64,000 bases of DNA from Nitrospirota bacterium (GTDB taxonomy: Bacteria; Nitrospirota; Thermodesulfovibrionia; Thermodesulfovibrionales; Dissulfurispiraceae), in NCBI GenBank assembly GCA_040754455.1, contig JBFMCP010000014.1, positions 1 to 64,000 on the forward strand, given 5' to 3'. The position numbers and the translations under genes were made by a program. Positions 1 to 14,140 of this stretch are shown here, piece after piece. Within the stretch, counting starts at the first letter, position 1. Each line of letters starts with the position of its first letter. Under the pieces are notes generated by a model that had not been told where the DNA came from, did not search any database, and saw only the letters and a program-made list of their open reading frames with translations.

Positions 1-1
1 T

Positions 2-112
2 GATGAGACCGTTCGGCGCGAACTCCAGCGCTTAGGCTATATATGGAAACGCCCTCGGTACGTACTTGCACCCGATCCCGATCGGGAGAAAAAAAAGAAA
101 AATCATCTGTAA
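2..112 (+). CDS. IS630 transposase OrfA, C-terminal part (winged-helix region), partial at window edge
   Basis: Frame 2 reads DETVRRELQRLGYIWKRPRYVLAPDPDREKKKKNHL*, typical of the IS630 HTH-to-catalytic linker. Not in the ORF track. Confidence 0.8.
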   Translation, partial: DETVRRELQRLGYIWKRPRYVLAPDPDREKKKKNHL

Positions 113-665
113 GATCAGAGGATTGCCACCTCGCAGTGTGCTGTTGTTTGAGGATGAGACCGATCTGCTGCTGTTTCCTCCCCTGCGCTCGATGTGGTCT
201 CTGAGAGGACGGTCGGCAGAAGTTCTCCTGCAGGGACATAATGCGCGACGGGTGGTCTTTGGAGCCATGAATTTCAAAACGGGCAGACGCTGGTTTCTGA
301 TCAGAGAGCGACAGCGAAGTGAAGACTTCCGGGCTTTTTTGCATCTGCTTAAATGGCATTATCGAGGATGGCATTTGGCTTTGCTGCTGGATGGAGACCC
401 GAGCCATACTGCTAAGGCTTCTCAAACTCTTGCTTTTGAGATGGGTATTACGTTGCTGTGGCTTCCTACGCGATCTCCTCAATTGAATCCCTTGGACACG
501 CTGTGGGGTCAAGCCAAGGACATCATCAGTGCCAATAAACAACGAGCTTCCATTGACGATCTGGTGCATCGGTTTATTGACCATCTGGGCAGTCTGTCTG
601 ATTATGAAGCCCTGCATACGTCCGGCATCCTCTCTGATAACTTCTGGTTAAAACGTTTTTTGTGA
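90..665 (+). CDS. IS630 transposase OrfB (DDE catalytic domain), probably joined to OrfA by a frameshift at the A8 run
   Basis: Track ORF 66..665 has DDE motifs but no credible RBS or start. It overlaps OrfA at GAG-AAAAAAAA-GAAAAA (86-102). Confidence 0.85.
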   Translation, partial: KKRKIICKIRGLPPRSVLLFEDETDLLLFPPLRSMWSLRGRSAEVLLQGHNARRVVFGAMNFKTGRRWFLIRERQRSEDFRAFLHLLKWHYRGWHLALLLDGDPSHTAKASQTLAFEMGITLLWLPTRSPQLNPLDTLWGQAKDIISANKQRASIDDLVHRFIDHLGSLSDYEALHTSGILSDNFWLKRFL

Positions 666-2737
666 CAAAACTTTTGCGGACTTGCTTAGCATTTATCATT
701 ATCCCCTTTACCTCCTCTTTCGCCGGAACGACCCGGTACTATTACGATGAATTGAATCGTTTGAAAAGGGTTGAATCCGGAAGTGCCAGCACTTATACCA
801 TCACTGCAGTAGCAGGCAGTAACGGCACGATATCTCCTTCCGGCTCGGTCTCGGTATCCAGCGGAAGCAGTAAGACATTCACTATTACGCCGAATAGCGG
901 GTACAAAGTAGCAGATGTTAAGGCTGATGGAGTATCCAAAGGACCTATAACCACGTATACGTTCAGTAATGTAACTGATAATCACACCATCGAGGCACAG
1001 TTTGCTGCGGTCAGCGCTACCTATCAACTGAGTGTCACCGTGAATAGTCCATCAGGGGGGACGGTAGCAAGCTCTCCTGCTGGTATCAATTGCGGCACTG
1101 ATTGCTCGGAAGTGTACAGCAGCGGCACTATAGTAACGCTTACTGCAACTCCGAATACTGGCTATGTTTTCAGCGGCTGGTCAGACGGAGGCTGCACTGG
1201 AACGGGCACTTGTACCGTAACCATAAATGTCACTACAGCAGTAACAGCTACATTCACTACCAGTACCTCGACAGAAGCCGTAGGTCTCATAAGGCAAAAC
1301 TGTACCGGCTACCCCAACTGTTACACCTCCCTGTCGGCCTGGGAGGCGGCTTACGGAGGCATCGACTTCGGCACGTGTACGCAAGGGGACCTGGTATGTG
1401 CTAATAAAGTTGCCGTAGCGAGGATCGAGGGGCCCTGGACTGCTCCGGATACCACCCCTGTTGTTATTGACGGCTGGACGACCGATGCCAGCCGCTATAT
1501 CCGCATCTACACCGCACCTGATGCACGCCATCAGGGGAAATGGAGCACGGATAAGTACCGGCTCGAAGCCAGCGGCGACAACATATACGGCCTTTTGACA
1601 TACGAAGGGTATGTAACAGTCGACGGTCTTCAAGTCAAAGTATCAACAGTGAGCCCTACCGGGTGGGTTGGAGGAATATGGAAAGGCAATGGAGTGGTAC
1701 CTCCTGTATATGTGTCGAATTGTATTGTACAGGGAGTATTGTTGGGCAACACCTACTCTGATGGAATCGGCACTTCAGGGCAGAGTAGCAGTGGGGTGAT
1801 GTATATGTGGAACAACATTGCGTATGGATTCAATTATGCTCCGGGCAATGTCCATCAAGGAGGGTTTTATTGCGGCAGCGGCACCTGTTATGCCTACAAC
1901 AACACCTCTTACGGCAACAATAAAGGGTTCTCCCGCTACTCCGGGACATTCATAGCAGTAAACAATATCAGTTACAATAATACCGACAATTACTACGGCA
2001 CGTTCACTTCATCAACCAATAATCTCTCCGGACCATCCCAAACCGATGCGCCAGGCACAAACGCCAGGAATGGTGTAACCGTAACTTTTGTAGATGCAGC
2101 CACTAACGATTTTCACCTCGCTACGACTGATACAGGGGCAAAGGATTATGGAGCCATAGACCCTGCTTCGGGGCTCTATTCTACCGACATCGACGGGCAA
2201 CCCCGCTCCGAGCCCTGGGACATCGGCGCCGATGAGGCAGCCACAGGGACACCGGTGAGCTATACCATCTGGCCGGAAACGGCAGTACCAGCGCAGCCCG
2301 CGATTAATGATGGACAGCCGATCGAGGTAGGGGTAAAATTCCGTTCGGACGTCAGCGGATACATTACCGGTTTGCGGTTTTATAAAGGTGCTGCAAACAC
2401 CGGCACGCATACTGCCACTCTGTGGACAAGCACGGGCACGCCGCTGGCAACGGCTACCTTCACGAATGAGACCCCTTCGGGGTGGCAGCAGGTGAACTTC
2501 GCTTCTCCGGTGGCGATCACGGCGAATACGACCTATGTGGCATCCTACTATTCACCTTCAGGGTATTTTGCTGTCAGCCTGGCATATTTTACCGTGGGTG
2601 TTGACGCGCCGCCGCTCCATGCGCTTGCAAATGGGGTTGACGGCGGGAACGGTGTCTATAAGTACGGCGACAGTGGATTCCCTACGCAGACGTTGAACTC
2701 GAATAACTACTGGGTGGATGTGGTGTTTCAACAATGA
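662..2737 (+). CDS. Secreted multidomain protein: partial YD-like motif, two InlB-B/Ig-like repeats, beta-helix-like region, C-terminal DUF4082-like domain; 5' end interrupted by IS630
   Basis: Hydrophobic leader ending SSFA. Motifs RYYYDELNRLKRVE, TFTITPNSGYKVADV...HTIEAQF, VTLTATPNTGYVFSGWS, DIDGQPR...WDIGADE and EVGVKFRSDVSGYITGLRFYK...NYWVDVVF. Confidence 0.75.
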   Translation: MTKLLRTCLAFIIIPFTSSFAGTTRYYYDELNRLKRVESGSASTYTITAVAGSNGTISPSGSVSVSSGSSKTFTITPNSGYKVADVKADGVSKGPITTYTFSNVTDNHTIEAQFAAVSATYQLSVTVNSPSGGTVASSPAGINCGTDCSEVYSSGTIVTLTATPNTGYVFSGWSDGGCTGTGTCTVTINVTTAVTATFTTSTSTEAVGLIRQNCTGYPNCYTSLSAWEAAYGGIDFGTCTQGDLVCANKVAVARIEGPWTAPDTTPVVIDGWTTDASRYIRIYTAPDARHQGKWSTDKYRLEASGDNIYGLLTYEGYVTVDGLQVKVSTVSPTGWVGGIWKGNGVVPPVYVSNCIVQGVLLGNTYSDGIGTSGQSSSGVMYMWNNIAYGFNYAPGNVHQGGFYCGSGTCYAYNNTSYGNNKGFSRYSGTFIAVNNISYNNTDNYYGTFTSSTNNLSGPSQTDAPGTNARNGVTVTFVDAATNDFHLATTDTGAKDYGAIDPASGLYSTDIDGQPRSEPWDIGADEAATGTPVSYTIWPETAVPAQPAINDGQPIEVGVKFRSDVSGYITGLRFYKGAANTGTHTATLWTSTGTPLATATFTNETPSGWQQVNFASPVAITANTTYVASYYSPSGYFAVSLAYFTVGVDAPPLHALANGVDGGNGVYKYGDSGFPTQTLNSNNYWVDVVFQQ

Positions 2738-2744
2738 TAACAAA

Positions 2745-2782
2745 GAGCGAGGGACTGGAAGAGTTACTTCAGGCCCTCGCTC
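2745..2782. terminator. Inverted repeat between convergent genes, probable bidirectional terminator
   Basis: GAGCGAGGG..CTGGAAG (2745-2761) pairs with CTTCAGGCCCTCGCTC (2767-2782). Confidence 0.65.
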
Positions 2783-3990
2783 TAAAACATCACCCTCAAG
2801 ACCTCATCGATGTTCTTCAATGCAGCTATTATCCCCGCCGCTTCAGACTGCTTGAGGGCAGCGCTGTCGATTGACATCACCATATCATATATTCCATCGA
2901 ACGCCGCTTTGACGTTCAGATCGTTATCCATCTTCCCTCTAAACACTTTTTCGATCCTGTTGCCGGGTTCACCTGTCTTGGACGTTCTCTTCTTTGTCTT
3001 TCTTTCAATGCTCCGTATCTGCTTCTTGAGTGCCCTCAGCTTTTCAGCAGTCGAGCGCATGGCCTCAGCCGAAAAGTTGAGCAGGGAACGGTAGTGGCCG
3101 TAAATGAGAAAGAAGCGTATTTCGCTCAAAGAGTACCCCTGTTTTTTAAGCGTGTCGGTGTAGATGATATTGCCTATGCTCTTCGACATTTTCTTGCCGT
3201 TGACATGGAGGTGGTGGCAGTGGAGCCAGAACCGCGCCATGGGGTAGGGCCGCACGGATTCGAGGATGGCAATAGAGTAGTCGTGGTGGCGGAAGAGGTT
3301 ATCGATGCCGCCGCAGTAGATCGAGAGGGTCTCATCAAAATAGTCGCTCACCATGCTGGGGTCCTGGATGTTCCATGAGGGTCTCCCCCTCCCGATTGCC
3401 GTGTCCCATGCACCGTTCGATGCCCCGTGCCAGAGAATGAAATCTCCCAGGTTCCACCGCATGCCCGGATAGGTATCTTTATGAAAGCGCACCTTTCTTT
3501 TCGGCCACCTGGACATATCGAGGCCGTAGAGTTTTCCGAACCCTGAAAATTTCAGAGGATCGAAATAGACATTCCCCCGGTACCAGTACGCGATGCCTTT
3601 CTTGAGCAGCTGTTGTATGATATCGACTGCCCTGTCGACATGCTCTGAGGCGCGGGGAAGATAGTCGGGCGTTTGCATGCGCAGAAGTGTCATCTCACGA
3701 CAGAATGCTCTGATGTTCCGCTCGGTCAGCTGCCGCATGGCGGTTTTCTCTTCCCTTGCTGCCTTGTAGGCCTTGTCTTCCACATCGGTGAAGTTCATTC
3801 CCCTCAGGACCTTGTAGCCCCGGTACTCCAGGTACCGCACGAGGATGTCTTCGAACAGGAAGGTCCTGAAGTTGCCGATGTGCGACCGCTGGTACACCGA
3901 AGGACCGCAGGTAAACATGTTGACCACCTTCCTGTTGACCGGCCGGAAGACTTCGAGCTTTCTTCCCATCGTATTAAACAGTTTCAGCAT
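2782..3990 (-). CDS. Cysteinyl-tRNA synthetase-like class I ligase paralog (divergent, lacks the C-terminal anticodon domain)
   Basis: Motifs MLKLFNT, TCGPSVY, HIGN, NFTDVEDK, DFILW, GRPSW, KMSKS, GHYRS and DALR-like MDNDLN. Start set at ATG 3990 by similarity to CysRS N-termini. Confidence 0.85.
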   Translation of the reverse strand: MLKLFNTMGRKLEVFRPVNRKVVNMFTCGPSVYQRSHIGNFRTFLFEDILVRYLEYRGYKVLRGMNFTDVEDKAYKAAREEKTAMRQLTERNIRAFCREMTLLRMQTPDYLPRASEHVDRAVDIIQQLLKKGIAYWYRGNVYFDPLKFSGFGKLYGLDMSRWPKRKVRFHKDTYPGMRWNLGDFILWHGASNGAWDTAIGRGRPSWNIQDPSMVSDYFDETLSIYCGGIDNLFRHHDYSIAILESVRPYPMARFWLHCHHLHVNGKKMSKSIGNIIYTDTLKKQGYSLSEIRFFLIYGHYRSLLNFSAEAMRSTAEKLRALKKQIRSIERKTKKRTSKTGEPGNRIEKVFRGKMDNDLNVKAAFDGIYDMVMSIDSAALKQSEAAGIIAALKNIDEVLRVMF

Positions 3991-3998
3991 ATTTAATT

Positions 3999-5363
3999 TT
4001 AATCCACTTTCAGATTTTTCCATACTCCTTTATGGAACCTCAGTGTCATCAATATACCCTGGATACTCATGGACGTCACCATCGCAGACCATACTCCCAG
4101 GGCGCCGTAGTCGAGGACAAGGGCAAGTATATAGGCGAGGGGGAGCCTGATGAGCCACATGGCAATGACAATGATCCACATGGTCCCTCTGGTGTCGCCC
4201 GCTCCCTGGAGACCTCCTCCAAGAATTGTGCTCAACGCCATGAAGGGTTCCGAGAGCATATTGACCCTCAGGTAACGGGCGGTCTCTTTGAGCACTGCCG
4301 GATCCCTTGTTACCATTGCAGCAAAACGTTCGGCCCAAATAAAAATTATCAGTGCCATGACACTGATAAACGTGATACCCGCAATGGCCATCTTCCATCC
4401 CACCTTTTCGGCCCGTCCGGGGTTGCGTGCCCCGAGGTTCTGTCCGACGAGCACTGACGACGCCATATTGAGCGCGAAAGCGGGAAGATAGATCACTGCC
4501 TCGATCCTGAGTCCATTGGTGAGCGAGGCGAGGGCCGTGATACTTTCGTTCCCCAAGCGCCCGAGAATGTTATAGAGCACAAGGCTCCCGGCGTTCCAGG
4601 CAATCTGGAGCATTGCCGCGGGCCAGCTGAGCATGACAATTCGCTTTATGAGAGCAGTCGAGATGCTCCACGGACCGGTAAAGATCGACTTCCACCGGCT
4701 GGAGTTGAGAAGGACGAAGTTGGTGATCATGCCGATGGTCACCGATGATGCTGTGGCGAGTCCGATGCCGGTATGCTCCAGTCTCGGGAAAGAGAAGAGG
4801 CCGAGCGCTAGCGTGAAACATCCGAAAATGTTGATGACACTTACCGTCGACATGGTGAAGAGCGTCTTCTTCACCTCGCCGCTGGAGCGGAAGATCGCAT
4901 TGGTGATAATTAGTATGTAGTTAGGTCCGATAGCAAGAGAAAAAATCTTCAGGAAGTCCTCGGCAATCGGGCGTATCCTTACGGGGAACCCCGCTGCTGC
5001 GATGATCTCGCGGTGAAGGGCTACGCCGGCTGTGGTAAGTCCTGTGGCGGCAAGGATACCGAAAAGGATCGATTGCTTCGCAATAGCGAGCGCGTCGTGC
5101 ATATTGCCTGCACCGAGCTCCCGTGCGAGCAGGGCCACCGTGCCGATACTGATCGCGTTCGCAATGAGAACAATGAGAAAGTAAATCTGGCTCACAAATC
5201 CGACTGAGGCCTGGACATCGGGGCTGATAAATCCCGCAACGTAAATATCGGTAAGTCCGACAAGGAAATTAAAGACCATAATGAGCAGCATGGGCCAGGA
5301 AAGTTTCCAGATGGCGGTCCACAGGCTCCCTTCGGTCAGACTAACGGTTCTTTCTCTCGTCAT
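3999..5363 (-). CDS. MATE family efflux transporter
   Basis: About 12 hydrophobic segments with MATE motifs (LSWPMLL, VGLTDIYVAG, VLVGQNLGA, LQGAGDT). GGAG precedes ATG 5363. Confidence 0.9.
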   Translation of the reverse strand: MTRERTVSLTEGSLWTAIWKLSWPMLLIMVFNFLVGLTDIYVAGFISPDVQASVGFVSQIYFLIVLIANAISIGTVALLARELGAGNMHDALAIAKQSILFGILAATGLTTAGVALHREIIAAAGFPVRIRPIAEDFLKIFSLAIGPNYILIITNAIFRSSGEVKKTLFTMSTVSVINIFGCFTLALGLFSFPRLEHTGIGLATASSVTIGMITNFVLLNSSRWKSIFTGPWSISTALIKRIVMLSWPAAMLQIAWNAGSLVLYNILGRLGNESITALASLTNGLRIEAVIYLPAFALNMASSVLVGQNLGARNPGRAEKVGWKMAIAGITFISVMALIIFIWAERFAAMVTRDPAVLKETARYLRVNMLSEPFMALSTILGGGLQGAGDTRGTMWIIVIAMWLIRLPLAYILALVLDYGALGVWSAMVTSMSIQGILMTLRFHKGVWKNLKVD

Positions 5364-5583
5364 GAGATGCTCTCCGATTTTGACGGCTATCGGTACTCCA
5401 TTGGCCGTAGCAAGTGCGTGCTGCGTCAGACAAAATGTAAGGGGCACCCGGCATCATTCCGCAGACAGGATAATTATATCAGGACTTGCGCATTCGGGCA
5501 TTGCTTTGATGCGTTTGCCCCGGATACATGCACGTCTTGTAAATCGGGATAGATGTGCTAGGATTGAAGAAGGAGGCATCTCT

Positions 5584-5967
5584 ATGAGAAAATCATTCTG
5601 GCTGGTCTTTAGTATGGTCGTATCAGTGTTGGTGCTTGCGAGCGGTGTCCGGGCGGGCTCGCTGGGCTATTTGACGCCTGCTGCTGCGGTGACAGCTCCC
5701 TATGCAGGGGGAGGAAGCATCCCGGTCTATGAGAGCATAGATACCCTCGAAGACGCGCTCTCGCGGGGGAACATCAATGGGGCGGTGATCTGCAATGCCA
5801 TTGCCGGTACGGCTGTCGAGATCTTCGATGAGACGAGGACCCGCCTTGACCCTTCCCGATACCCTGCCATGGGCGATTTTATGAGGGCAAGAATTCTGGA
5901 CGGCGACTGCAGCGGCAGAGAGGGCTGGGTCTCTATCACTAATCTCACCAGAAGGCCGCTCTCCTGA
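5584..5967 (+). CDS. Secreted hypothetical protein (127 aa), possibly SH3-like C-terminus
   Basis: AAGGAGG RBS before ATG 5584. Signal peptide MRKSFWLVFSMVVSVLVLASGVRA. Contains RILDG...GREGWV. Confidence 0.7.
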   Translation: MRKSFWLVFSMVVSVLVLASGVRAGSLGYLTPAAAVTAPYAGGGSIPVYESIDTLEDALSRGNINGAVICNAIAGTAVEIFDETRTRLDPSRYPAMGDFMRARILDGDCSGREGWVSITNLTRRPLS

Positions 5968-6355
5968 GGAGCAGGCTCACTCGCCGGCAGCAATCGCCCT
6001 TCGGTTATGTCATAAAAGATACCACACGCAGCGCGCTGTCAAGGCACGTTGTCGTTCTGCTGTTATGCTCCGGCGTAGCGCTTACCCGAGGCTGCACGCT
6101 TTTGCCTTGCACTCCCTTCAATAATCCTGCAGCATAATGTGCTTCATTTCTTAAGCCACCATCTGCCGTCTGCATCAAAACGCTACTCTGATAACCTTCT
6201 GAAAACGCAGCAAACAGCTGCAGCAACTTGCAAAAAGCCGCTGTGATAGGCTATTTTCAAGTGTTCGTCAGGTCCTGAACGAGCAGTGCCCGGGCGCGAA
6301 CCTGGCTGAAGGTACAGAGAGCGCGGCTTAGCGCAGTGAAAGGAGTGTGCAGTAC

Positions 6356-6496
6356 ATGTCGTGGGATGTGGCGCTTCATTTGCTGAATCAGCTCATCGAT
6401 ACAGCGAATGAAACCATGAATAAGTTTCTTTATCTCTTGATGCTCTTGTTGATGACCTGTTCCCTGTTTATCGGCAATTTCTTTTTTGACGAATAA
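6356..6496 (+). CDS. Small (46 aa) predicted single-pass membrane protein
   Basis: AAAGGAG about 11 nt before ATG 6356. Sequence MSWDVALHLLNQLIDTANETMNKFLYLLMLLLMTCSLFIGNFFFDE*. Below the track length cutoff. Confidence 0.5.
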   Translation: MSWDVALHLLNQLIDTANETMNKFLYLLMLLLMTCSLFIGNFFFDE

Positions 6497-6598
6497 TCAC
6501 CCCACCTCAGCCAACCTTTCTCGGGATCAATGCTTCGGATTGTCCGGCGTACTATGGATTCTCCTGGGAAGAGATGCGGCACAGCGAGACGTGCTTTT

Positions 6599-6865
6599 CT
6601 AAAAGAGATAGAGGCCGGCGCGGAATTTACCGTCAACGGGAAGACACCACTGGACTACTGCGTTCAGGGTCGGGGTGCCGGTGCTCTTGTTTTCGAATTC
6701 GATAAACTGTCCGAACTCCAGGGGGGTCTCACTCATAATGCCGAGGCCGCTGTTGCTCACATCGACGGTATTACAGCGGTGGTGCTCTTTCGCCGGATCT
6801 CCGTAGATCGAGAAATGCAGGGAGATGTCATGGGGTATTCTCATTTCTCTCCGTGCCTCTTTCAT
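6599..6865 (-). CDS. Stand-alone PilZ domain protein (c-di-GMP receptor)
   Basis: RxxxR (RREMR) and DxSxxG (DVSNSG) motifs, followed by beta-strand pattern AVVQWC...RAGLYL. Confidence 0.8.
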   Translation of the reverse strand: MKEARREMRIPHDISLHFSIYGDPAKEHHRCNTVDVSNSGLGIMSETPLEFGQFIEFENKSTGTPTLNAVVQWCLPVDGKFRAGLYLF

Positions 6866-6944
6866 GGGTACAAAATAGCATATACGGCGGTTAAAGTCAA
6901 TTGCCGCAGGCATGAGGAGAGGAATGTAAGTTCTTGATGAGACT

Positions 6945-8186
6945 TCAAAATCTCCAGCTTATGCCGAACTCGAAGGAATTCTCGGCGAGCTTTGAGGTGA
7001 GGGAAACATCGGGACCGCCCGGTCCGCCGAAATCCTTTCCTGTTTCGGAGGCGGTCTTCCTGAAGGCGTGCGTATACCCGATATTCATTTCGAATCTCTG
7101 CGTGAACCGGTAGCCCGCGCCAAAGGTGACGTGTGTTTCTGCGATGGCGGGAAATCCGATGATCCTCAGGAGTTCGTAATTGAAAGTAGATACGTTTTTG
7201 CCCTGCACTGGGGTGAACGATGCAGTATCAGCATTGAACCCCTGGTGGGTCCTGACCGGGTTCCGTCCGTAATTGATGCCGGCCCTCAGCGCAAGCGAAG
7301 ATGCCGGATTGTATTGAATGCCGAAGGCATACACCCACTGATCTCGCCAGTCGAAGTCACGATATCCTTTTGCATCACCCCAGTTGATCCACTTGACGTT
7401 GGCCTCAATAAGCAGGCGGGGCGAAGGTGCATAGGCAATGCCGGCCCCTGCGCTCTGCGGCTGTTCGAGCGTAAGATTATCTTTAATCCCATCGGTGTCG
7501 AAATGTGCAACGTCCCGATGAGTAATGCTCTGCGGAGAAACATAGGATATGCCCACGGCAAAAGGACATTTCTTGTAAATTGCCCCGACTTGGAACCCGA
7601 ATCCCTCACCGGATGAGGTACCGAGTCCCATATCCAGGGATGCATAGTCCACGTGAAAGCTTGCGCCAAGCGAGAGATGTTCGTTCACAAGGTAAGCGAT
7701 ATTGGGAGCGAGCTTTAAAACCCGATACTCGGTGAAGAGATCGCCTTGATGACCGGGGGTAGCTGGCTCAAGATCAAGCCTCTCCCGGTAGTCTACCCCC
7801 AATCCCGACGTCCCGTATGCTGCAAACCCGAACCGCCACTTATCGACGAGGGGAGTGGAGACACCGATTGCCGGAATCAGAAAGAGATCAGCTTTGCTTT
7901 TAGCGCTGGTATTGATCCCCGCGCCGGGAGACTTGACCTTTGCACGCGTCCTCGGTGCAAAGAGTGTTGTGGTAACGTTGGCTTCGGAGCGCGGACAGTA
8001 AGGGCCGAAGCACATGGCTGCAGGGTTTGCAAAGACCGCGCCGATGGGGTCCTGGGGCGCAGCGATCCCAACGCCGCCCATTGTCCGGGAGATCGGGCCG
8101 ATGCCCATGAGGTTGTCGCCGTTCGTCGCCTGGGCATCGCCGCCGAAAGCGAGAAATAGAACAAACAATAAAGACACGAAAAACAT
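6945..8186 (-). CDS. FadL/OmpP1/TodX-family outer-membrane hydrophobic-compound transporter
   Basis: Signal peptide, TNGDNLMGIGPISRTMGG hatch region, NPA motif (ANPAA), C-terminal Phe (ISWRF). Confidence 0.85.
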   Translation of the reverse strand: MFFVSLLFVLFLAFGGDAQATNGDNLMGIGPISRTMGGVGIAAPQDPIGAVFANPAAMCFGPYCPRSEANVTTTLFAPRTRAKVKSPGAGINTSAKSKADLFLIPAIGVSTPLVDKWRFGFAAYGTSGLGVDYRERLDLEPATPGHQGDLFTEYRVLKLAPNIAYLVNEHLSLGASFHVDYASLDMGLGTSSGEGFGFQVGAIYKKCPFAVGISYVSPQSITHRDVAHFDTDGIKDNLTLEQPQSAGAGIAYAPSPRLLIEANVKWINWGDAKGYRDFDWRDQWVYAFGIQYNPASSLALRAGINYGRNPVRTHQGFNADTASFTPVQGKNVSTFNYELLRIIGFPAIAETHVTFGAGYRFTQRFEMNIGYTHAFRKTASETGKDFGGPGGPDVSLTSKLAENSFEFGISWRF

Positions 8187-8330
8187 TTTTATACCCTTCC
8201 CTTCTGATGAAGCGCCTTGGTCCCCAGGGACAACAGTATTCGTTTTCGTGGTTTAGTTCAGGACGAATTCAGGGTTCTTATTATAACAAATTGCGATGAG
8301 TGAAAGGGGAGCAAAAAGGGGAGAAAAAAA

Positions 8331-8404
8331 CGCGCCCAGGAGGATTCGAACCCCCGGCCTGCAGATTCGTAGTCTGTCGCTCTATCCAGCTGAGCTATGG
8401 GCGC
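8331..8404 (-). tRNA. tRNA-Arg (anticodon ACG), CCA not encoded
   Basis: Reverse complement GCGCCCATAGCTCAGCTGGATAGAGCGACAGACTACGAATCTGCAGGCCGGGGGTTCGAATCCTCCTGGGCGCG shows acceptor stem, D-loop, CT-ACG-AA loop and GGTTCGAATCC T-loop. Confidence 0.97.
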
Positions 8405-8456
8405 ATTAAATATTAATTTTATCAGTATTTACCATGTTTTATCAACTTCGGTAAAC

Positions 8457-8966
8457 TTAAACCGCATAAAACCGCCATTTGCAGAAACACTCTGCCGGGT
8501 GCGAATCGGGGGGAGCAAAAAGGCACTCGACTTTGACATTCGGATCGATGACGGAGGCGAAGTTCTGAAACTCGGCGCCATGCATATGTTTACAGATGTA
8601 TTCGCCCTTGCCATGCTTCAATCTTCCTTCCTGCGGCGGACAGTGCGGCATCGAGACAATGAGCTCATTTCCCTTTTCTTCGACTTCGTAGTCGGCAATG
8701 ATCGTCCAGGGGAAGAGTGAATATGCCTGCCAGACGCCCTTCGGACCCTTCTCGAAAGGGCCGAAGCGTTTAAGGATGTCCCGTGCACCAAGCTGGCCCA
8801 CTTTGGCCCAGACCCCGGCATTCAGCTCCTCTGCTGCAGCGATGCCGAACCGGTCTTCGACCTTGATGAACCAGAAGGCATCGGTAAGCCTGAAGCTCCA
8901 CAAGAGAGAGCGGATATATTCCTTAAGCTCATCGGCATTCATCTTCTCGATGATCTCAAAACCCAT
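8457..8966 (-). CDS. DUF6125-like hypothetical protein with conserved Cys (possible metal binding)
   Basis: Pattern DAFWFIKVE...CPPQEGR...YICK...FASVIDP...ECLFAPPDSHP..CFCKWRF. CAGGAG RBS. Confidence 0.65.
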   Translation of the reverse strand: MGFEIIEKMNADELKEYIRSLLWSFRLTDAFWFIKVEDRFGIAAAEELNAGVWAKVGQLGARDILKRFGPFEKGPKGVWQAYSLFPWTIIADYEVEEKGNELIVSMPHCPPQEGRLKHGKGEYICKHMHGAEFQNFASVIDPNVKVECLFAPPDSHPAECFCKWRFYAV

Positions 8967-9015
8967 AGCGTTCTCCTGAAATTATTTGCTATCCATTGTT
9001 ATTGATAGCTATTCG

Positions 9016-9960
9016 TTATCTCCTTTCCGCGTATGCCAGCTCAGTCAGCTTTTTTATACACTCCTCCATGTCACCGGGTAGCGGACTCGAAAATTCGAGG
9101 TATTCTTTCGTCATCGGGTGAGTAAACCCCAGTACCGCGGCATGGAGCATCTGCCGGGGAAAGGATATTTTTGTCCGCCTTAGTTCGACAGCAGTTTTAT
9201 TTCCATATGTGGTGTCGCCGAGCACGGGATGGCCGATGGCGGCGAAGTGTACCCGTATTTGATGTGTCCGTCCGGTGCCGAGCTGGGCCTCGATGAGCGT
9301 GGCGGCGCTGAACCGATCGAGCACCTTCCACTGGGTGACTGCCTTCTTGCCGCGCTGCGTGCGGGTCGACATCTTCTTCCGGTCTGAAACGGAGCGGCCG
9401 ATCTCCAAGGCGATCTCTCCCGAGTTTTTTTTGATGTCTCCGTAGACAAGGGTTACGTACTTCCTGTTGATCGTCCGTTCCTTGAATTGCTCGACAAGAC
9501 CATAGTAGGCCCGGTCATCCAGTGCAACGACCATGACGCCCGACGTATCTTTGTCGAGGCGATGGACGACGCCGGGGCGCAGCGGGCCTCCGATGGCCGC
9601 CATCTTTTTGCAGTGATAGGCGAGCGCGTTGAGCAGGGTCCCCTGCGCATGTCCTGCCGATGGGTAGACCACCATGCCTGCGGGCTTGTCGACGACGACG
9701 AGATATTCATCTCTGAAAAGTATCGGCACCGGGATCGGCTCAGGGATGAGCGCCTCAGGTTCGGGCTCAGACTGCAGCACCTCAATGACATCACCGGGTT
9801 GCACACGGTAGTTCGGCTGTGCGCTGCGGTTATTGACGAGGAGGTTACCTTCCTTGATCAATAGCTGAATCTGCGAGCGGCTGATCCCGGTTTTTTCAGC
9901 GGCGAAAATATCAAGACGCTTTGCGATATCTGTTTGAGAAACAGGTATAATCTCTTTCAT
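9016..9960 (-). CDS. rluD: RluA-family 23S rRNA pseudouridine synthase with S4 domain
   Basis: Motifs RLDIF, VDKPAGMVV, RPGVVHRLDKDTSG, GTGRTHQIRVH, QMLHA. Confidence 0.9.
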   Translation of the reverse strand: MKEIIPVSQTDIAKRLDIFAAEKTGISRSQIQLLIKEGNLLVNNRSAQPNYRVQPGDVIEVLQSEPEPEALIPEPIPVPILFRDEYLVVVDKPAGMVVYPSAGHAQGTLLNALAYHCKKMAAIGGPLRPGVVHRLDKDTSGVMVVALDDRAYYGLVEQFKERTINRKYVTLVYGDIKKNSGEIALEIGRSVSDRKKMSTRTQRGKKAVTQWKVLDRFSAATLIEAQLGTGRTHQIRVHFAAIGHPVLGDTTYGNKTAVELRRTKISFPRQMLHAAVLGFTHPMTKEYLEFSSPLPGDMEECIKKLTELAYAERR

Positions 9961-10115
9961 ATTCTTGCTAAATATTATAACAGAGTGATAAAATTACCAA
10001 TTAACGTTATAGTTTTTATTGCGTTCAGGGTTATAGCGCTCTATTAAGGAGGTGTTTTTGCTCACTGCTATAACACACCACGCTTTACGCTCGACGCAAT
10101 TCTGGAGGCACACTC

Positions 10116-11570
10116 TTGAAGCTTAATGAACTGACCATTTCCGAGTTGCGAAGGCTGCTCGACAACAGGGAGATCAGACCCCGGGATATCCTCGACGATG
10201 TCTATCAGCGGATCGATGCCGTTGAAGATAAGGTAAAATCGTATATTACGCTCACCAAAGAGCACGCCTACAAAACGGCTGAAGCCGCCGAGCAGTTGAT
10301 TGTTGCGAACAAGGCCTCGCTGCTTACCGGTATCCCCCTTGCGGTAAAGGACAACATGTGCACGAAGGGAATACTCACGACCTGCGCATCGAAGATGCTC
10401 CACAATTTTATTCCGCCCTATGAGAGCACGGTAACGAAAAGGATGGGCGAACAGCACTACCTCCTGGTCGGAAAGACCAACATGGACGAGTTCGCCATGG
10501 GGTCCTCAACAGAGAATTCCGCCTATCATACGACAAAAAACCCCTGGAACCTCGGGTGTGTTCCCGGAGGGAGCAGCGGCGGCTCTGCTGCTGCGGTTGC
10601 CGCCGACGAATGCATCGCTGCCCTCGGTTCTGATACGGGCGGCTCGATCAGACAGCCGGCATCGTTCTGCGGCGTGGTCGGCCTCAAGCCGACCTACGGC
10701 AGGGTGTCCCGTTACGGGCTCGTTGCGTTTGCTTCATCCCTCGATCAGATCGGGCCGATTACGAAGAATGTCACCGACGCCGCCATGGTGATGAATGTGA
10801 TCGCCGGCCATGACCGCCTCGATTCCACCTCGGCGCCGGTGGATGTTCCCGACTACGCGGCGGTGCTGGGTAAAGAGATAAAAGGGCTGAGGATCGGCAT
10901 TCCGAAAGAATACTTCGTCGAGGGCATGGACAACGAGGTAGCGACAGCGGTCCGGGCGGCGATACAGAAGCTTGAATCATTGGGCGCGACGGCTGTTGAA
11001 GTCACCCTTCCCCATACCGCGTATGCAATTGCCACCTATTACATTCTCGCCACATCAGAGGCATCCTCGAACCTGGCACGCTACGACGGTGTGAAGTACG
11101 GCTTCAGGGCAGAAGGGAAAGACCTGCTCGAGATGTACATGAAGACGAGGGCGCAGGGATTCGGCGCCGAGGTCAAGCGGAGAATCATGCTCGGCACGTA
11201 CGCGCTTTCTTCCGGGTACTACGAGGCCTACTACAAGAAGGGACAGCAGGTGAGGACGCTCATCAAGCAGGATTTCGAAAACGCTTTGAAGCAGGTCGAC
11301 GTCCTGGTGACCCCGACCTCTCCCAGTGCGGCCTTCAGCATCGGAGAAAAGACCACCGATCCGCTCCAGATGTACCTCTCCGATATCTTCACCATATCCA
11401 TCAACCTCGCAGGTGTGCCCGGTCTCTCGCTGCCCTGCGGCATCACGTCGGCAGGGCTGCCGGTAGGGCTTCAGGTGATCGGCAAGCATTTTGATGAAGC
11501 AACTATTTTCAGAGTCGCCTATGCGTACGAGCAGAGCACCGACTGGCATATGAGGAGACCGCAGCTATGA
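10116..11570 (+). CDS. gatA: Asp-tRNA(Asn)/Glu-tRNA(Gln) amidotransferase subunit A
   Basis: Amidase signature [47 protein letters not shown] start after GGAGG. Confidence 0.97.
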
Positions 11571-13030
11571 ACAGCGAGAACATGGAGAACACTTACGGCA
11601 ACGGGAAATACGAAGCGGTCATCGGCCTTGAAGTTCATGCCCAGATGCTGACCGAGACAAAGATATTCTGCGGCTGCTCCACCACGTTCGGTGCAGAGCC
11701 GAATACCCAGACCTGCCCGGTCGATATCGGGCTCCCCGGGGTGTTGCCGGTGCTCAACAAAAAGGCGGTCGAGTTCGCCATAAAGACCGGTCTTGCCATG
11801 AACTGCAGGATCAACGCCTACAGCAGGTTTGCCCGGAAGAATTATTTCTACCCCGACCTGCCGAAGGGGTATCAGATAAGCCAGTATGAACTTCCCATCT
11901 GTGAGCACGGCGCCATCGAGATCGTTGTCGACGGCAAGGTGAAGAGCATCGGCATTACCAGAATTCACATGGAAGAGGATGCCGGGAAGAATATCCATGA
12001 AGGCGGGGGAGCGTACAGCTTTGTTGACCTGAACCGCGCCGGCGTTCCCCTGATGGAAATCGTTTCCGAGCCGGATATCAGGACCCCCCGGGAAGCTGCG
12101 GAGTACATGAGAAAGATGCGGAGCATCCTTCGCTATCTTGGCGTGTGTGACGGCAATATGGAGCAGGGCTCGCTCAGGTGCGACGCCAATATCTCGGTAC
12201 GTCCAGTGGGACAGAAGGAGTTCGGCACCAAGACGGAATTGAAGAACATGAATTCCTTCAGGTTTGTCGAGAAGGCGCTCGAGTATGAAATAAAACGCCA
12301 GGTGAGGGTTCTTGAAGAGGGCGGGAAAATCATCCAGGAAACGCGGCTCTGGGACTCCGCCGCCGGCGTGACCCAGTCCATGCGGACAAAGGAGGAGGCG
12401 CACGATTACCGCTACTTTCCCGAGCCTGACCTTGTCCCGATTGTGGCCGAAAAGGAATGGATCGACAATATCAAAGCATCGCTTCCCGAGCTTCCGGATG
12501 CAAAGCGCGAACGCTTTGTTTCACAATACGGCTTGCCTGAATACGACGCCGATCTGCTCACCTCCGAAAAGCCGATCGCTTCATGGTACGAGGACGCGGT
12601 CAAAGCGGGCGGACAGCCCAAGGCGGTTTCGAACTGGATGATGGGTGATTTGATGCGCCTGCTCAATGAAGAAAACAGGCCGATCGAGGAATGCCCGATG
12701 CAGCCGGCGCAGCTTGCCGGCATGCTCAGACTCATCGATAACGGCACGATCAGCGGTAAGATTGCCAAGACGGTATTCGAAGAGATGTACCGGAGCGGCA
12801 AAGATGCCGAGACGGTCGTGAAGGAGAAAGGCCTTGTCCAGATCAGCGATGAGGCGGCGATCGAGAAAGCCATCGACGAGGTCCTCGCGAGGAGCCAAAA
12901 AGAGGTCGAGCGATACAAGGCCGGTGATGAGAAACTGATCGGCTTTTTCGTCGGACAGGTCATGAAAGCGACCAAGGGCAGGGCCAACCCGCAGTTGCTC
13001 AATGAACTCCTGAAAAAGAAGTTATTGTAA
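11567..13030 (+). CDS. gatB: Asp-tRNA(Asn)/Glu-tRNA(Gln) amidotransferase subunit B
   Basis: Motifs [41 protein letters not shown] and a YqeY-like tail. Confidence 0.97.
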
Positions 13031-13044
13031 TCTCTAATTTTTTA

Positions 13045-13073
13045 TTGACACGTTCTATCGATTGTTTTATAGT
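13045..13073 (+). promoter_or_regulatory. sigma70-type promoter upstream of the first cytochrome c7
   Basis: TTGACA (13045-50), 17-nt spacer, TATAGT (13068-73). Confidence 0.75.
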
Positions 13074-13269
13074 AAAAAGCGCTTATATATATTACTGAAA
13101 AACGCCTTTTCCATAGTAAGGATATAAGCTGTTCCCTATAATGAGAATCACCTCCCCAAAAGGTAAGAGTGTTTTGGCCCTGGGGGAGAATTTGAGAGTA
13201 AAATCAATAATGCAGTACATGGTATGATCTTTGCTTTATTAATATCTCAGAGAGAAAGGGGGTGAAGGT

Positions 13270-13587
13270 ATGAAGATTTTCTCAGCAATTTTAATCGTGC
13301 TCGTTGCAGTGGCTTTCGTCGGCAGCGCTTTTGCAGTTCCTGCAGGAAAGACGCTTGAGTATCCCGACGGCGCTATGGGCAAGGTCACCTTTGACGGCAA
13401 AACCCACGCTGACAAGGGACTGAAGTGCAATGATTGCCACACCAAGATCTTCCCGATGAAGAAGGGCTCGATGAAGATGACCCAGGCTGACCACGGGACT
13501 GATAAATGGTGCGGCGCCTGCCATAACGGTACCAAGGCATTCGGACAGAAGGACGCAGCAAGCTGTGCGAAGTGCCACAAGAAATAA
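13270..13587 (+). CDS. Periplasmic triheme c7-type cytochrome, copy 1
   Basis: Signal peptide plus three CXXCH motifs (CNDCH, CGACH, CAKCH) in a Lys-rich mature domain of about 83 aa. Confidence 0.92.
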   Translation: MKIFSAILIVLVAVAFVGSAFAVPAGKTLEYPDGAMGKVTFDGKTHADKGLKCNDCHTKIFPMKKGSMKMTQADHGTDKWCGACHNGTKAFGQKDAASCAKCHKK

Positions 13588-13615
13588 TTCAAGAATACTT
13601 TGAGATACTCCAGGG

Positions 13616-13644
13616 AGGGCGGCCCGATGCGGCCGCCTTTTTTT
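13616..13644 (+). terminator. Intrinsic terminator
   Basis: AGGGCGGCC-CGATGC-GGCCGCCTT followed by a T-run. Confidence 0.8.
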
Positions 13645-13747
13645 ATGGTGTGCCTCTCCCCCCAGTCGGCGTGCCCGGAACACCTCTGCTCAACTTCATG
13701 GCGGAACACGTTGCGCACAAAACCCCGGCTTTCGGATGAGTCATTAG

Positions 13748-13776
13748 TTGACATGCATCCTGGAGTTTACTATAGT
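13748..13776 (+). promoter_or_regulatory. sigma70-type promoter upstream of the second cytochrome c7
   Basis: TTGACA (13748-53), 17-nt spacer, TATAGT (13771-76). Confidence 0.75.
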
Positions 13777-13822
13777 TGTTGTTATATAGGTACGAAGGTC
13801 ACAAAAAGAAGGGGGTGAACAT

Positions 13823-14140
13823 ATGAAACTTTTATCTGCACTCTTAGCTCTCATCATTGCCGTTGCTTTTGTCAGCAGCGCCATGGCAGTTGCTCCCGGA
13901 AAGACGCTCGAGTATCCGGACGGCCCTCAGGGCAAGGTCACCTTCAACGGTAAGACCCACGCCGATGCAGGACTGAAGTGCAACGACTGCCACACCAAGA
14001 TCTTCCCGATGAAGAAGGGCTCGATGAAGATGACCAGGGAGGATCACGGTAAGGACAAGTGGTGCGGCGCCTGTCATAACGGCACCAAGGCGTTCAGCCA
14101 GGGCGACGAGAAAAACTGCGGGAAGTGCCACAAAAAGTAA
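13823..14140 (+). CDS. Periplasmic triheme c7-type cytochrome, copy 2
   Basis: Paralog of 13270..13587 with the same length. CNDCH, CGACH, CGKCH. Confidence 0.92.
   Translation: MKLLSALLALIIAVAFVSSAMAVAPGKTLEYPDGPQGKVTFNGKTHADAGLKCNDCHTKIFPMKKGSMKMTREDHGKDKWCGACHNGTKAFSQGDEKNCGKCHKK

Follow-up and report, generated by a model that had tools for sequence, protein, structure and literature searches.

The first 64,000 nt of contig JBFMCP010000014.1 from a Nitrospirota bacterium (GCA_040754455.1; hereafter the window) carry a 402-amino-acid (aa) CysRS-like paralogue (2782..3990, minus strand) that directly follows the gene for a MATE-family efflux transporter on the same strand. Our analysis indicates that this gene belongs to a distinct and ancient clade of CysRS paralogues, intact and widely conserved, which appears to have kept the adenylation machinery of the parent enzyme and to have rebuilt the rest of the active site. 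As to its function, we tentatively propose, as a possibility that we would not yet call probable, that the paralogue is an MshC-like, metal-assisted adenylating ligase acting on a non-tRNA acceptor, the product of which is exported by the MATE transporter.

Counted from its first ATG, the reading frame of the paralogue spans 2782-4023 on the minus strand (413 aa). All 22 aligned homologues begin at the second methionine, at MLKLFNT, and the start was therefore set there (3990), which gives 402 aa, with the stop codon at 2782-2784 (call based on Pfam, TIGRFAM, homologue alignment and translation). An 8-nt spacer, 'aattaaat' (3991..3998, minus strand), separates this start codon from the stop codon (3999-4001) of the MATE coding sequence (3999..5363, minus strand; 454 aa), whose start was placed by alignment with 44 orthologues, an alternative in-frame GTG at 5447 being less likely. 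The open reading frames (ORFs), the product length and the 8-nt distance are thus as the original prediction, made from the letters of this DNA, had given them. The paralogue matches Pfam tRNA-synt_1e (E=5e-76) and its best matches among solved structures are all CysRS (E up to 3e-70), so that the ORF is evidently a real gene. The upstream gene matches Pfam MatE (PF01554, E=1.1e-45, in two stretches) and exceeds the cut-off of TIGR00797 (196.8 vs 147.4 bits), falls below the cut-off of every named subfamily (NorM, YeeO, MepA, SolL, WgkD), and is by these matches a bona fide MATE transporter.

The paralogue lacks the anticodon-binding domain found at the C-terminus of CysRS and ends where that domain would begin. 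Its match to the cysS equivalog model TIGR00435 covers model positions 1-400 of 466 and reaches 328.7 bits, just below the cut-off of 340, while the match to the MshC model TIGR03447 covers positions 16-407 of 411 and, with 182.8 bits, falls far short of its cut-off (485.1). Full-length CysRS rows continue past the last residue of the paralogue by roughly 50-110 residues, a few by more, whereas the paralogue itself has 0 there (144 rows), and PF23493, present on nearly all canonical CysRS clusters listed, and PF09190, present on most, are both absent from all 120 of 120 paralogue clusters. The predicted loss of the anticodon domain therefore stands; the accompanying claim that the protein stops just after DALR-like helices is right in that it ends after the helical bundle, the DALR_2 match itself being weak and below cut-off (17.4 vs 22 bits). 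What is left comprises the Rossmann catalytic domain, the CP insertion, the stem-contact fold and the helical bundle. An AlphaFold2 model built on a 132-row alignment (pLDDT 95.1, pTM 0.94), used instead of a run on a 23-sequence alignment in which the pocket had pLDDT 68, gave Foldseek TMq values of 0.84-0.89 to the four best-ranked CysRS chains (8qhp, 3tqo, 1li5, 1u0b) and 0.82-0.85 to MshC (3c8z, 8hfn, 8hfm), both well ahead of MetRS. The modelled fold is the CysRS/MshC core minus the C-terminal domain. A search of proteins of 705-2010 aa for fused forms yielded two matches at 38% identity, none of them from the clade.

Residues were mapped onto E. coli CysRS through the alignment to 1li5, which is gap-free in the relevant stretches, so that the map is direct: C28, W206, N207, Q209 and D210 of the paralogue correspond to C28, W205, H206, E208 and C209, and H235, H236, D237, Y238 and S239 to H234, H235, E236, N237 and E238 (substitutions are written below in the E. 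coli numbering). The HIGN form of the class I HIGH motif (residues 37-40; 3871..3882, minus strand; from the translation), the KMSKS loop (267-271; 3178..3192, minus strand; from the family alignment and translation) and C28 of TCGPS, the first of the metal ligands and one that is retained (3907..3909, minus strand; from the translation and alignments), are invariant together with G29, T68, W206, H235 and H236 in 23 of 23 family rows, I38 of HIGN being nearly so and H37, G39 and N40 strictly. T68 is also the residue of CysRS at this site, and G29 and S31 match the residues of MshC that hold the alpha-amino group. The retention of the ATP motifs, of C28 (in TCG) and of the HH pair had been predicted correctly. 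The adenylation half-reaction is almost certainly kept.

The remainder of the pocket departs from the canonical form. WNIQD (206-210; 3361..3375, minus strand) stands where CysRS and MshC have WH[IV]EC, with the changes H206N, E208Q and C209D, and RHHDYS (234-239; 3274..3291, minus strand) stands where CysRS has PHHENE and MshC PHHEYS. Both readings, the second given as FRHHDYS, agree with the original prediction. The Zn ligands of E. coli CysRS are reportedly C28, C209, H234 and E238, a set attributed to Newberry et al. (2002); at these four positions the paralogue keeps C28 and H234 and has C209D and E238S, so that two of the four are changed, as had been claimed. W206, N207, Q209, D210, R234, H235, H236, D237 and Y238 are invariant in the 23-row family alignment, as are two clade-specific CP-domain motifs, FH[KR]DTYPG and WNxGDF[IV]LW, which read FHKDTYPG (169-176) and WNLGDFILWH (179-188) in the window (3427..3486, minus strand; from alignments and translation) and lie where CysRS touches the acceptor end of the tRNA (PMC5389517). 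Fixed in the clade relative to canonical CysRS are H206N, E208Q, C209D, H224Y, P233R, E236D, N237Y and E238S/T/N, at positions that include some of the most conserved of the canonical enzyme (H206 99%, E208 100% and H224 100% in 83 canonical rows). C209D is also found in 5 full-length CysRS rows of the 144 tabulated, and the truly clade-specific changes are H206N, E208Q, P233R and H224Y, plus those of the CP domain. In all, 26 positions are conserved in both the clade and canonical CysRS yet differ between them, ~11 of which lie within the two pocket motifs. These two motifs lose two acidic residues (E208, E238) and gain an arginine (R234, from P233R), a shift in charge that we take as a hint that the substrate may be larger or more anionic.

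More than 120 clusters (399-426 aa, 63-71% identity) came out of a word-indexed search; their name is 'cysteinyl-tRNA synthetase' at JGI and either 'hypothetical protein' or 'class I tRNA ligase family protein' at NCBI. An exhaustive HMMER search of 50%-identity representatives found distant members at 42-48% identity (P0121, P0122, P0125, P0126, P0132) that keep the same motif pattern and length. WN[IV]QD combined with RHHDY occurs in 14 of the 144 tabulated rows, 14 of 14 without a C-terminal tail, whereas nearly all full-length rows carry WH[IL]EC[ST].. and HH.NE-type motifs. With the two CP motifs as probe and one genome per species, the locus was confirmed in at least 563 species. Neighbourhood, linkage and host counts given here refer to the best 80 of these loci, all 80 of them in metagenome-assembled genomes (MAGs), whose hosts by submitter label are Nitrospirota/Thermodesulfovibrionia (46), Thermodesulfobacteriota (21, including Syntrophales, Smithella and Desulfatiglandales) and a few others.

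In a maximum-likelihood tree (63 rows, quick mode) the 15 paralogue rows, together with one degenerate sequence, are parted from the other CysRS by a branch of 0.9 changes per column that has 99% SH-aLRT support. Within the family tree internal branches are short and phyla are intermingled, 12 phylum changes being needed against a minimum of 4. Median dN/dS of the paralogue is 0.17 (Nei-Gojobori, 148 pairs with 0.05<dS<2), with values of 0.13-0.31 in the 25 pairs listed of 27 with dS<1, and that of the MATE gene is 0.15 (codon alignments of the loci, Nei-Gojobori); purifying selection acts on both genes. The expectations of a pattern conserved across homologues and of purifying selection are thereby borne out. 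No second cysS is present among the 48 ORFs scanned in the window, nor is there a cysS within 10 kb at any of the 80 loci, each of which gave one CysRS-like tblastn match. A search with P0131, the nearest canonical CysRS, returned Aminicenantes/Acidobacteriota proteins, which do not bear on the host taxa, and the two supplementary files searched from the 'Candidatus Sulfobium' genome paper hold no synthetase entries.

The linkage to the exporter is likewise conserved, as had been supposed. In 49 of the 80 loci the immediate upstream neighbour, in the same orientation, is a MATE orthologue (52-67% identity, whole-gene matches), and the gap between the two genes has a median of ~26 nt and is at most 100 nt in 41 of 50 pairs (window included). 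Linkage is commoner in Nitrospirota (36/46) than in Thermodesulfobacteriota (8/21). Pairwise non-synonymous divergence of the MATE gene and of the paralogue is correlated (r=0.84), a value reached by 0 of 2000 Mantel permutations. The predicted MATE-paralogue complex scored 0.00, which gives no verdict and was counted neither way on binding. Among 8-mers upstream of the MATE gene none was common to more than 8 of 44 loci, where shuffles gave up to 6, and the promoter and terminator scan remained at chance level.

Among known systems, MshC (the L-cysteine:GlcN-Ins ligase of mycothiol synthesis; TIGR03447; 3c8z, 8hfm) offers the model for the function proposed here. It is likewise a CysRS paralogue of ~410 aa with the same end after the helical bundle, it keeps HIGH and KMSKS as well as the stem-contact and helical domains, and it shares with the paralogue HH-[D/E]-Y-S instead of HHENE and the loss of canonical H224 (Q in MshC, Y in the paralogue). 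In fragment search alignments MshC reads GWHVECSAI...DIQGGG...FPHHEYS and the paralogue SIYCGG...FRHHDYS, and the consensus of 83 canonical rows matches none of Y237, S238 and the H224 loss. In MshC complexes the Zn rests on C43, C231, H256 and the ligand thiol, i.e. on three protein ligands, and the alpha-amino group is bound by T46, T83 and the backbone of G44 (PMC9736012). The equivalent residues of the paralogue are C28, D210 and H235 for the metal and S31, T68 and G29 for the alpha-amino group; the counterparts of C43 and H256 are thus kept, that of C231 is an aspartate, and HH-D-Y-S faces HH-E-Y-S. Since MshC holds its Zn with three protein ligands, the loss of E238 would be compatible with metal and even with cysteine binding. 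The claim that the ligand changes imply a non-cysteine substrate is consequently not upheld, the PHHEYS of MshC binding cysteine with three ligands and C209D occurring in full-length CysRS. MshC and the paralogue differ in that MshC keeps W-H-V-E-C where the paralogue has W-N-I-Q-D, that MshC hosts are Actinomycetota and paralogue hosts are anaerobic Nitrospirota and Thermodesulfobacteriota, and that the paralogue family is strongly basic.

In the mechanism that we propose, ATP would be bound via HIGN and KMSKS and an alpha-amino acid via the backbone of G29 together with S31 and T68, its side chain resting on a metal that may be held by C28, D210 and H235. This amino acid would be cysteine or an analogue of it that is larger or more anionic. 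The aminoacyl-AMP formed would then give up its aminoacyl group, in a transfer like that of MshC, to a non-tRNA acceptor that is probably anionic or membrane-proximal, and the MATE transporter, encoded upstream on the same message, would export the product or its conjugate. A non-tRNA acceptor is favoured because the Y-S is of the MshC type, the coupling to a small-molecule exporter is tight and no partner tRNA is evident; were the enzyme to charge tRNA, such coupling would be difficult to account for, except in a resistance module of resistant CysRS and pump.

A number of observations weigh against this proposal. At 31 of the 80 loci there is no MATE gene within 10 kb, although two of these (L028 and L075) have too short a flank on the upstream side for a decision, and a common species history would by itself also produce the correlated divergence of MATE gene and paralogue. 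Beyond the MATE gene no other pathway neighbour is conserved; the 80 loci hold no mshA/B/D-like neighbours and, beside the paralogue, no conserved GT4 (glycosyltransferase), PIG-L (deacetylase) or GNAT (acetyltransferase) gene of the kind that serves mycothiol synthesis. Overall the paralogue is nearer to CysRS than to MshC (328.7 vs 182.8 bits with the two TIGRFAM models; 208-239 vs 131 bits), and the MshC-like Y-S could be convergent, merely reflecting the loss of the fourth Zn ligand. The family is moreover strongly basic (median isoelectric point, pI, 9.31 and net charge +13; 118 members), whereas the same region of canonical CysRS has a median pI of 6.0 and a net charge of -7 (n=109), and the CP segment carries +8 in the family and 0 in canonical CysRS. 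Four CysRS-like proteins without an anticodon-binding domain and with a fully canonical cysteine pocket, P0137, P0139, P0158 and P0198, have net charges of +31, +43, +28 and +26 (pI 9.7-10.3); they are four of the five such forms checked, P0210 being the exception. This high charge looks like an electrostatic compensation for lost tRNA contacts and would favour an RNA acceptor. The clade and P0137, P0139, P0158 and P0164 form one side of a branch with 98% SH-aLRT support, and there is probably an old, basic, domain-less lineage of which the paralogue clade is a pocket-remodelled branch.

The charge, shared with domain-less forms that have a canonical pocket, and the precedent of CysRS* together favour an RNA acceptor, and a specialised tRNA- or RNA-directed synthetase is accordingly an alternative that we weigh seriously, though we hold it doubtful. 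Such an enzyme would charge a particular tRNA (e.g. a selC*-type tRNA-Cys) or a modified nucleoside, as GluQRS does, with cysteine or another amino acid, electrostatic binding and the rebuilt CP motif replacing anticodon reading. CysRS* (cysS*) is a second CysRS copy in Desulfobacterales of the Desulfococcus/Desulfonema type that is without the anticodon-binding domain, has changes in CP1, a region which in CysRS faces or contacts the acceptor end, and is proposed to charge an opal-reading selC* tRNA-Cys(UCA) (Mukai et al., 2017, PMC5389517). With this precedent and the basic domain-less forms with canonical pockets, three of the four sharing the well-supported side of the tree, the step from a missing anticodon domain to tRNA independence does not follow as had been claimed; a repurposed paralogue coupled to an exporter remains a fair reading of the invariant substitutions, the selection and the linkage, with two of its inference steps weaker than they were stated. 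The RNA-directed alternative further draws on the basic character being strongest in the CP domain, on selC* having been reported from Thermodesulfovibrio, Smithella, Nitrospirae and delta-proteobacteria, which coincide with the host taxa of the paralogue family, and on the retained stem-contact and helical domains, both of which MshC retains as well. The paralogue family is nevertheless distinct from CysRS*. Anaerobic delta-proteobacterial hosts, CP1-region changes and the lack of the anticodon-binding domain are common to both, but cysS* lies downstream of selC* and selB* and is rare, with one metagenomic contig besides the isolates (PMC5389517), whereas the paralogue lies behind a MATE gene, not behind selB* (flanks were not explicitly searched for selB), and occurs in at least 563 species. 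The 'PTVS' motif of CysRS* CP1 is present at its position in none of the proteins compared, the family having W-P-x-x-K there, and the amino-acid pocket of the paralogue is changed relative to canonical CysRS. No dedicated or conserved tRNA gene adjoins the paralogue in the window or the 60 of 80 loci scanned; the tRNAs near the loci are all ordinary, with a syntenic tRNA-Arg(ACG) in a few, and Rfam gave nothing except tRNA in positions 1-14000 of the window and nothing at gathering score in seven diverse loci. There is also no obvious reason for a tRNA-charging enzyme to be translationally coupled to an efflux pump, and Y237/S238 is a signature that the family shares with MshC, which works independently of tRNA. 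In a variant that we regard as very improbable, the enzyme would bind electrostatically, have a new specificity and load a non-cysteine, metal-chelating or anionic amino acid (e.g. a selenium- or sulfur-oxidised cysteine analogue) onto a special tRNA, for example of the selC* type. The genetic code would thereby be naturally extended or rerouted, and the MATE transporter would handle the free amino acid or toxic by-products.

The pair might instead be a mobile module that resists and exports, in which an inhibitor-resistant or auxiliary cysteine-tRNA ligase with a remodelled pocket activates cysteine while evading a CysRS inhibitor or another stress, and the MATE transporter expels the compound; we think this unlikely. 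Second copies of aminoacyl-tRNA synthetases are known as resistance genes for other antibiotics, although we know of no natural inhibitor of CysRS. Such a module would account for both the MATE coupling and the tRNA-friendly charge, the Cys/Asp/His ligands would fit cysteine (three ligands in MshC, D209 in the 5 full-length CysRS rows), and the phylum-mixed tree with its short internal branches and 12 changes instead of 4 is as expected for a transferred accessory gene pair. Against it, H206 and E208, conserved at 99% and 100% in canonical CysRS and kept in the cysteine-binding MshC, are replaced in the clade, and the pump is missing from 31 of the 80 loci. It is less likely still that the paralogue is the housekeeping and only CysRS of its host, or a zinc-sparing back-up for sulfidic, zinc-poor habitats. 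The score only just below the TIGR00435 cut-off, the absence of any other cysS from the window and the short CysRS-like clusters (~394-409 aa) of several archaeal and bacterial phyla would be in line with such roles, as would the sulfide-exposed, anaerobic hosts and the Zur-regulated CysS2 of Cupriavidus (PMC10882993). The long and well-supported branch that splits the clade from other CysRS, the replacement of pocket residues conserved at 99-100% in the canonical enzyme, the patchy distribution with mixed phyla and an NCBI label of merely 'class I tRNA ligase family protein' argue against them, as does the lack of Zur or COG0523-type neighbours at the loci examined. The remaining probability falls to explanations outside the four weighed here.

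Canonical CysRS (TIGR00435; 1li5/1u0b, 8qhp) is the best match of the paralogue in both sequence and fold and has HIGH, KMSKS, C28, T68, W205 and H234/H235 in common with it; it differs in carrying PF23493 and in its pI (6.0 against 9.3), the paralogue lying just under the equivalog cut-off. GluQRS (YadB) is a truncated class I synthetase paralogue that modifies a tRNA base. MetRS paralogues have been predicted to be peptide ligases, making small peptides or metabolites, in gene clusters that include transporters (Aravind et al., 2010, PMC2922099). Both are, like the present family, catalytic cores without anticodon reading, and derive from other parent synthetases. In the available parts of PMC9437257, PMC11580382 and PMC2922099 the CysRS paralogues named are MshC and CysRS* only, and the literature found on CysRS-like proteins, cysS2 and MshC-like proteins, or on CysRS in connection with MATE or the host genera, contains no description of this family.

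The family, which is real, conserved and found in many species, may be a further instance of synthetase paralogues recruited to other ligations. The only CysRS paralogue turned ligase to have been characterised has long been MshC. If a ligase function for the present clade is true, it would add a second case, independent of the first and much more widely distributed, in at least 563 species of environmentally important anaerobes that reduce sulfate, disproportionate sulfur or live in syntrophy. Another set of metal ligands and a dedicated exporter would then point to a metabolite of the aminoacyl-conjugate type, which might serve as a redox cofactor or modify the envelope. Should the enzyme act on tRNA, it would be informative about the ways in which synthetases come to prefer other amino acids and about variation that the genetic code shows in nature. 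Under the current annotation, metabolic reconstructions and MAG completeness checks can wrongly count the paralogue as a cysS.

Truncated CysRS-like proteins look like a broad and unstudied radiation. Domain-less lineages of ~405-430 aa with pocket variants of their own are represented by P0164, P0222, P0256, P0198 and P0218, among which WNVQC with HHENT, WHILD with HHESI, WHVQD with HHESE, WHVECP with HHENG and one degenerate form with RMTAR for KMSKS were seen, and the ESM Atlas holds clusters of ~394-409 aa from Nitrososphaerota, Bathyarchaeota, Methanobacteriota, Spirochaetota and Mycoplasmatota. The full-length proteins with C209D (P0154, P0212, P0217, P0254 and P0265; 455-467 aa, tails of 55-65 residues) have WHIEDTAI and HHE[AC]E, and thus an Asp for the Cys209 zinc ligand in seemingly ordinary synthetases. 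A CP-domain loop of the paralogue (GKLYGLDMSRWPKRKVRFHKD; window 3463-3540, minus strand) gave weak matches (E 0.04-0.23) to 'GKEFGVTKARWPAKSVKF', an rRNA-contacting stretch of eukaryotic L17/L22, a resemblance that is probably coincidence; the CP-domain fragment searched against the PDB gave no MshC match, weak CysRS matches and otherwise only these chance-level L17/L22 ones.

Neighbours other than the MATE gene vary among the loci and include thioredoxin, histidine kinase, phosphoglucomutase, NifU/NifS, superoxide dismutase (SOD), rubrerythrin/peroxiredoxin, MOSC, radical SAM, AsnA and MscS genes. Redox-related ones (thioredoxin, SOD, rubrerythrin/peroxiredoxin, NifU/NifS) lie near ~19 of the 80 loci, in only about four syntenic groups: L002-L005, L015, L017, L019 and L037; L013, L024 and L048; L008 and L030; and L010, L021, L032, L033, L049 and L068. 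The genes of these redox/sulfur groups are a Trx2-type thioredoxin, an Fe/Mn SOD, rubrerythrin with peroxiredoxin, and NifU with NifS. They are suggestive of a redox link of the paralogue, to which, the groups being few, we give little weight. In one delta-proteobacterial group (L026, L050 and L057; e.g. L050:7368-9803) the paralogue is preceded not by a MATE gene but by AsnA, the aspartate-ammonia ligase and a relative of class II synthetases, and a 355-aa protein without a Pfam match.

Upstream of the MATE gene in the window, a small protein whose N-terminus resembles a signal peptide (MRKSFWLVFSMVV...) is encoded divergently from it (5583-5967, plus strand), followed further upstream by a 104-aa ORF without a Pfam match (6599-6913, minus strand). 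On the other side, a DDE_3 transposase fragment (E=1.1e-21; 66-665, plus strand, and 3-617, minus strand) at the window edge is a mobile-element remnant ~2 kb from the gene pair, and beside it lies the gene of a 691-aa DUF4082/InlB-B-repeat surface protein (662-2737). The window also holds a FadL-like porin, a DUF6125 protein, rluD and a tRNA-Arg gene. A polysaccharide biosynthesis and export cluster occupies ~40 kb on one strand (21264-63470, plus strand) and comprises a large TPR protein, a priming sugar transferase, a Wza-like exporter, GNVR chain-length proteins, AAA ATPases, a NusG-like regulator, many glycosyltransferases, a PIG-L deacetylase, an asparagine-synthase homologue and ABC transporters; its PIG-L and glycosyltransferase genes are 36 kb from the paralogue and no link is drawn between them. 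Adjacent and overlapping gatA and gatB genes (10116-13030, plus strand) are also present, and the organism uses the indirect, tRNA-dependent route to Asn and/or Gln.

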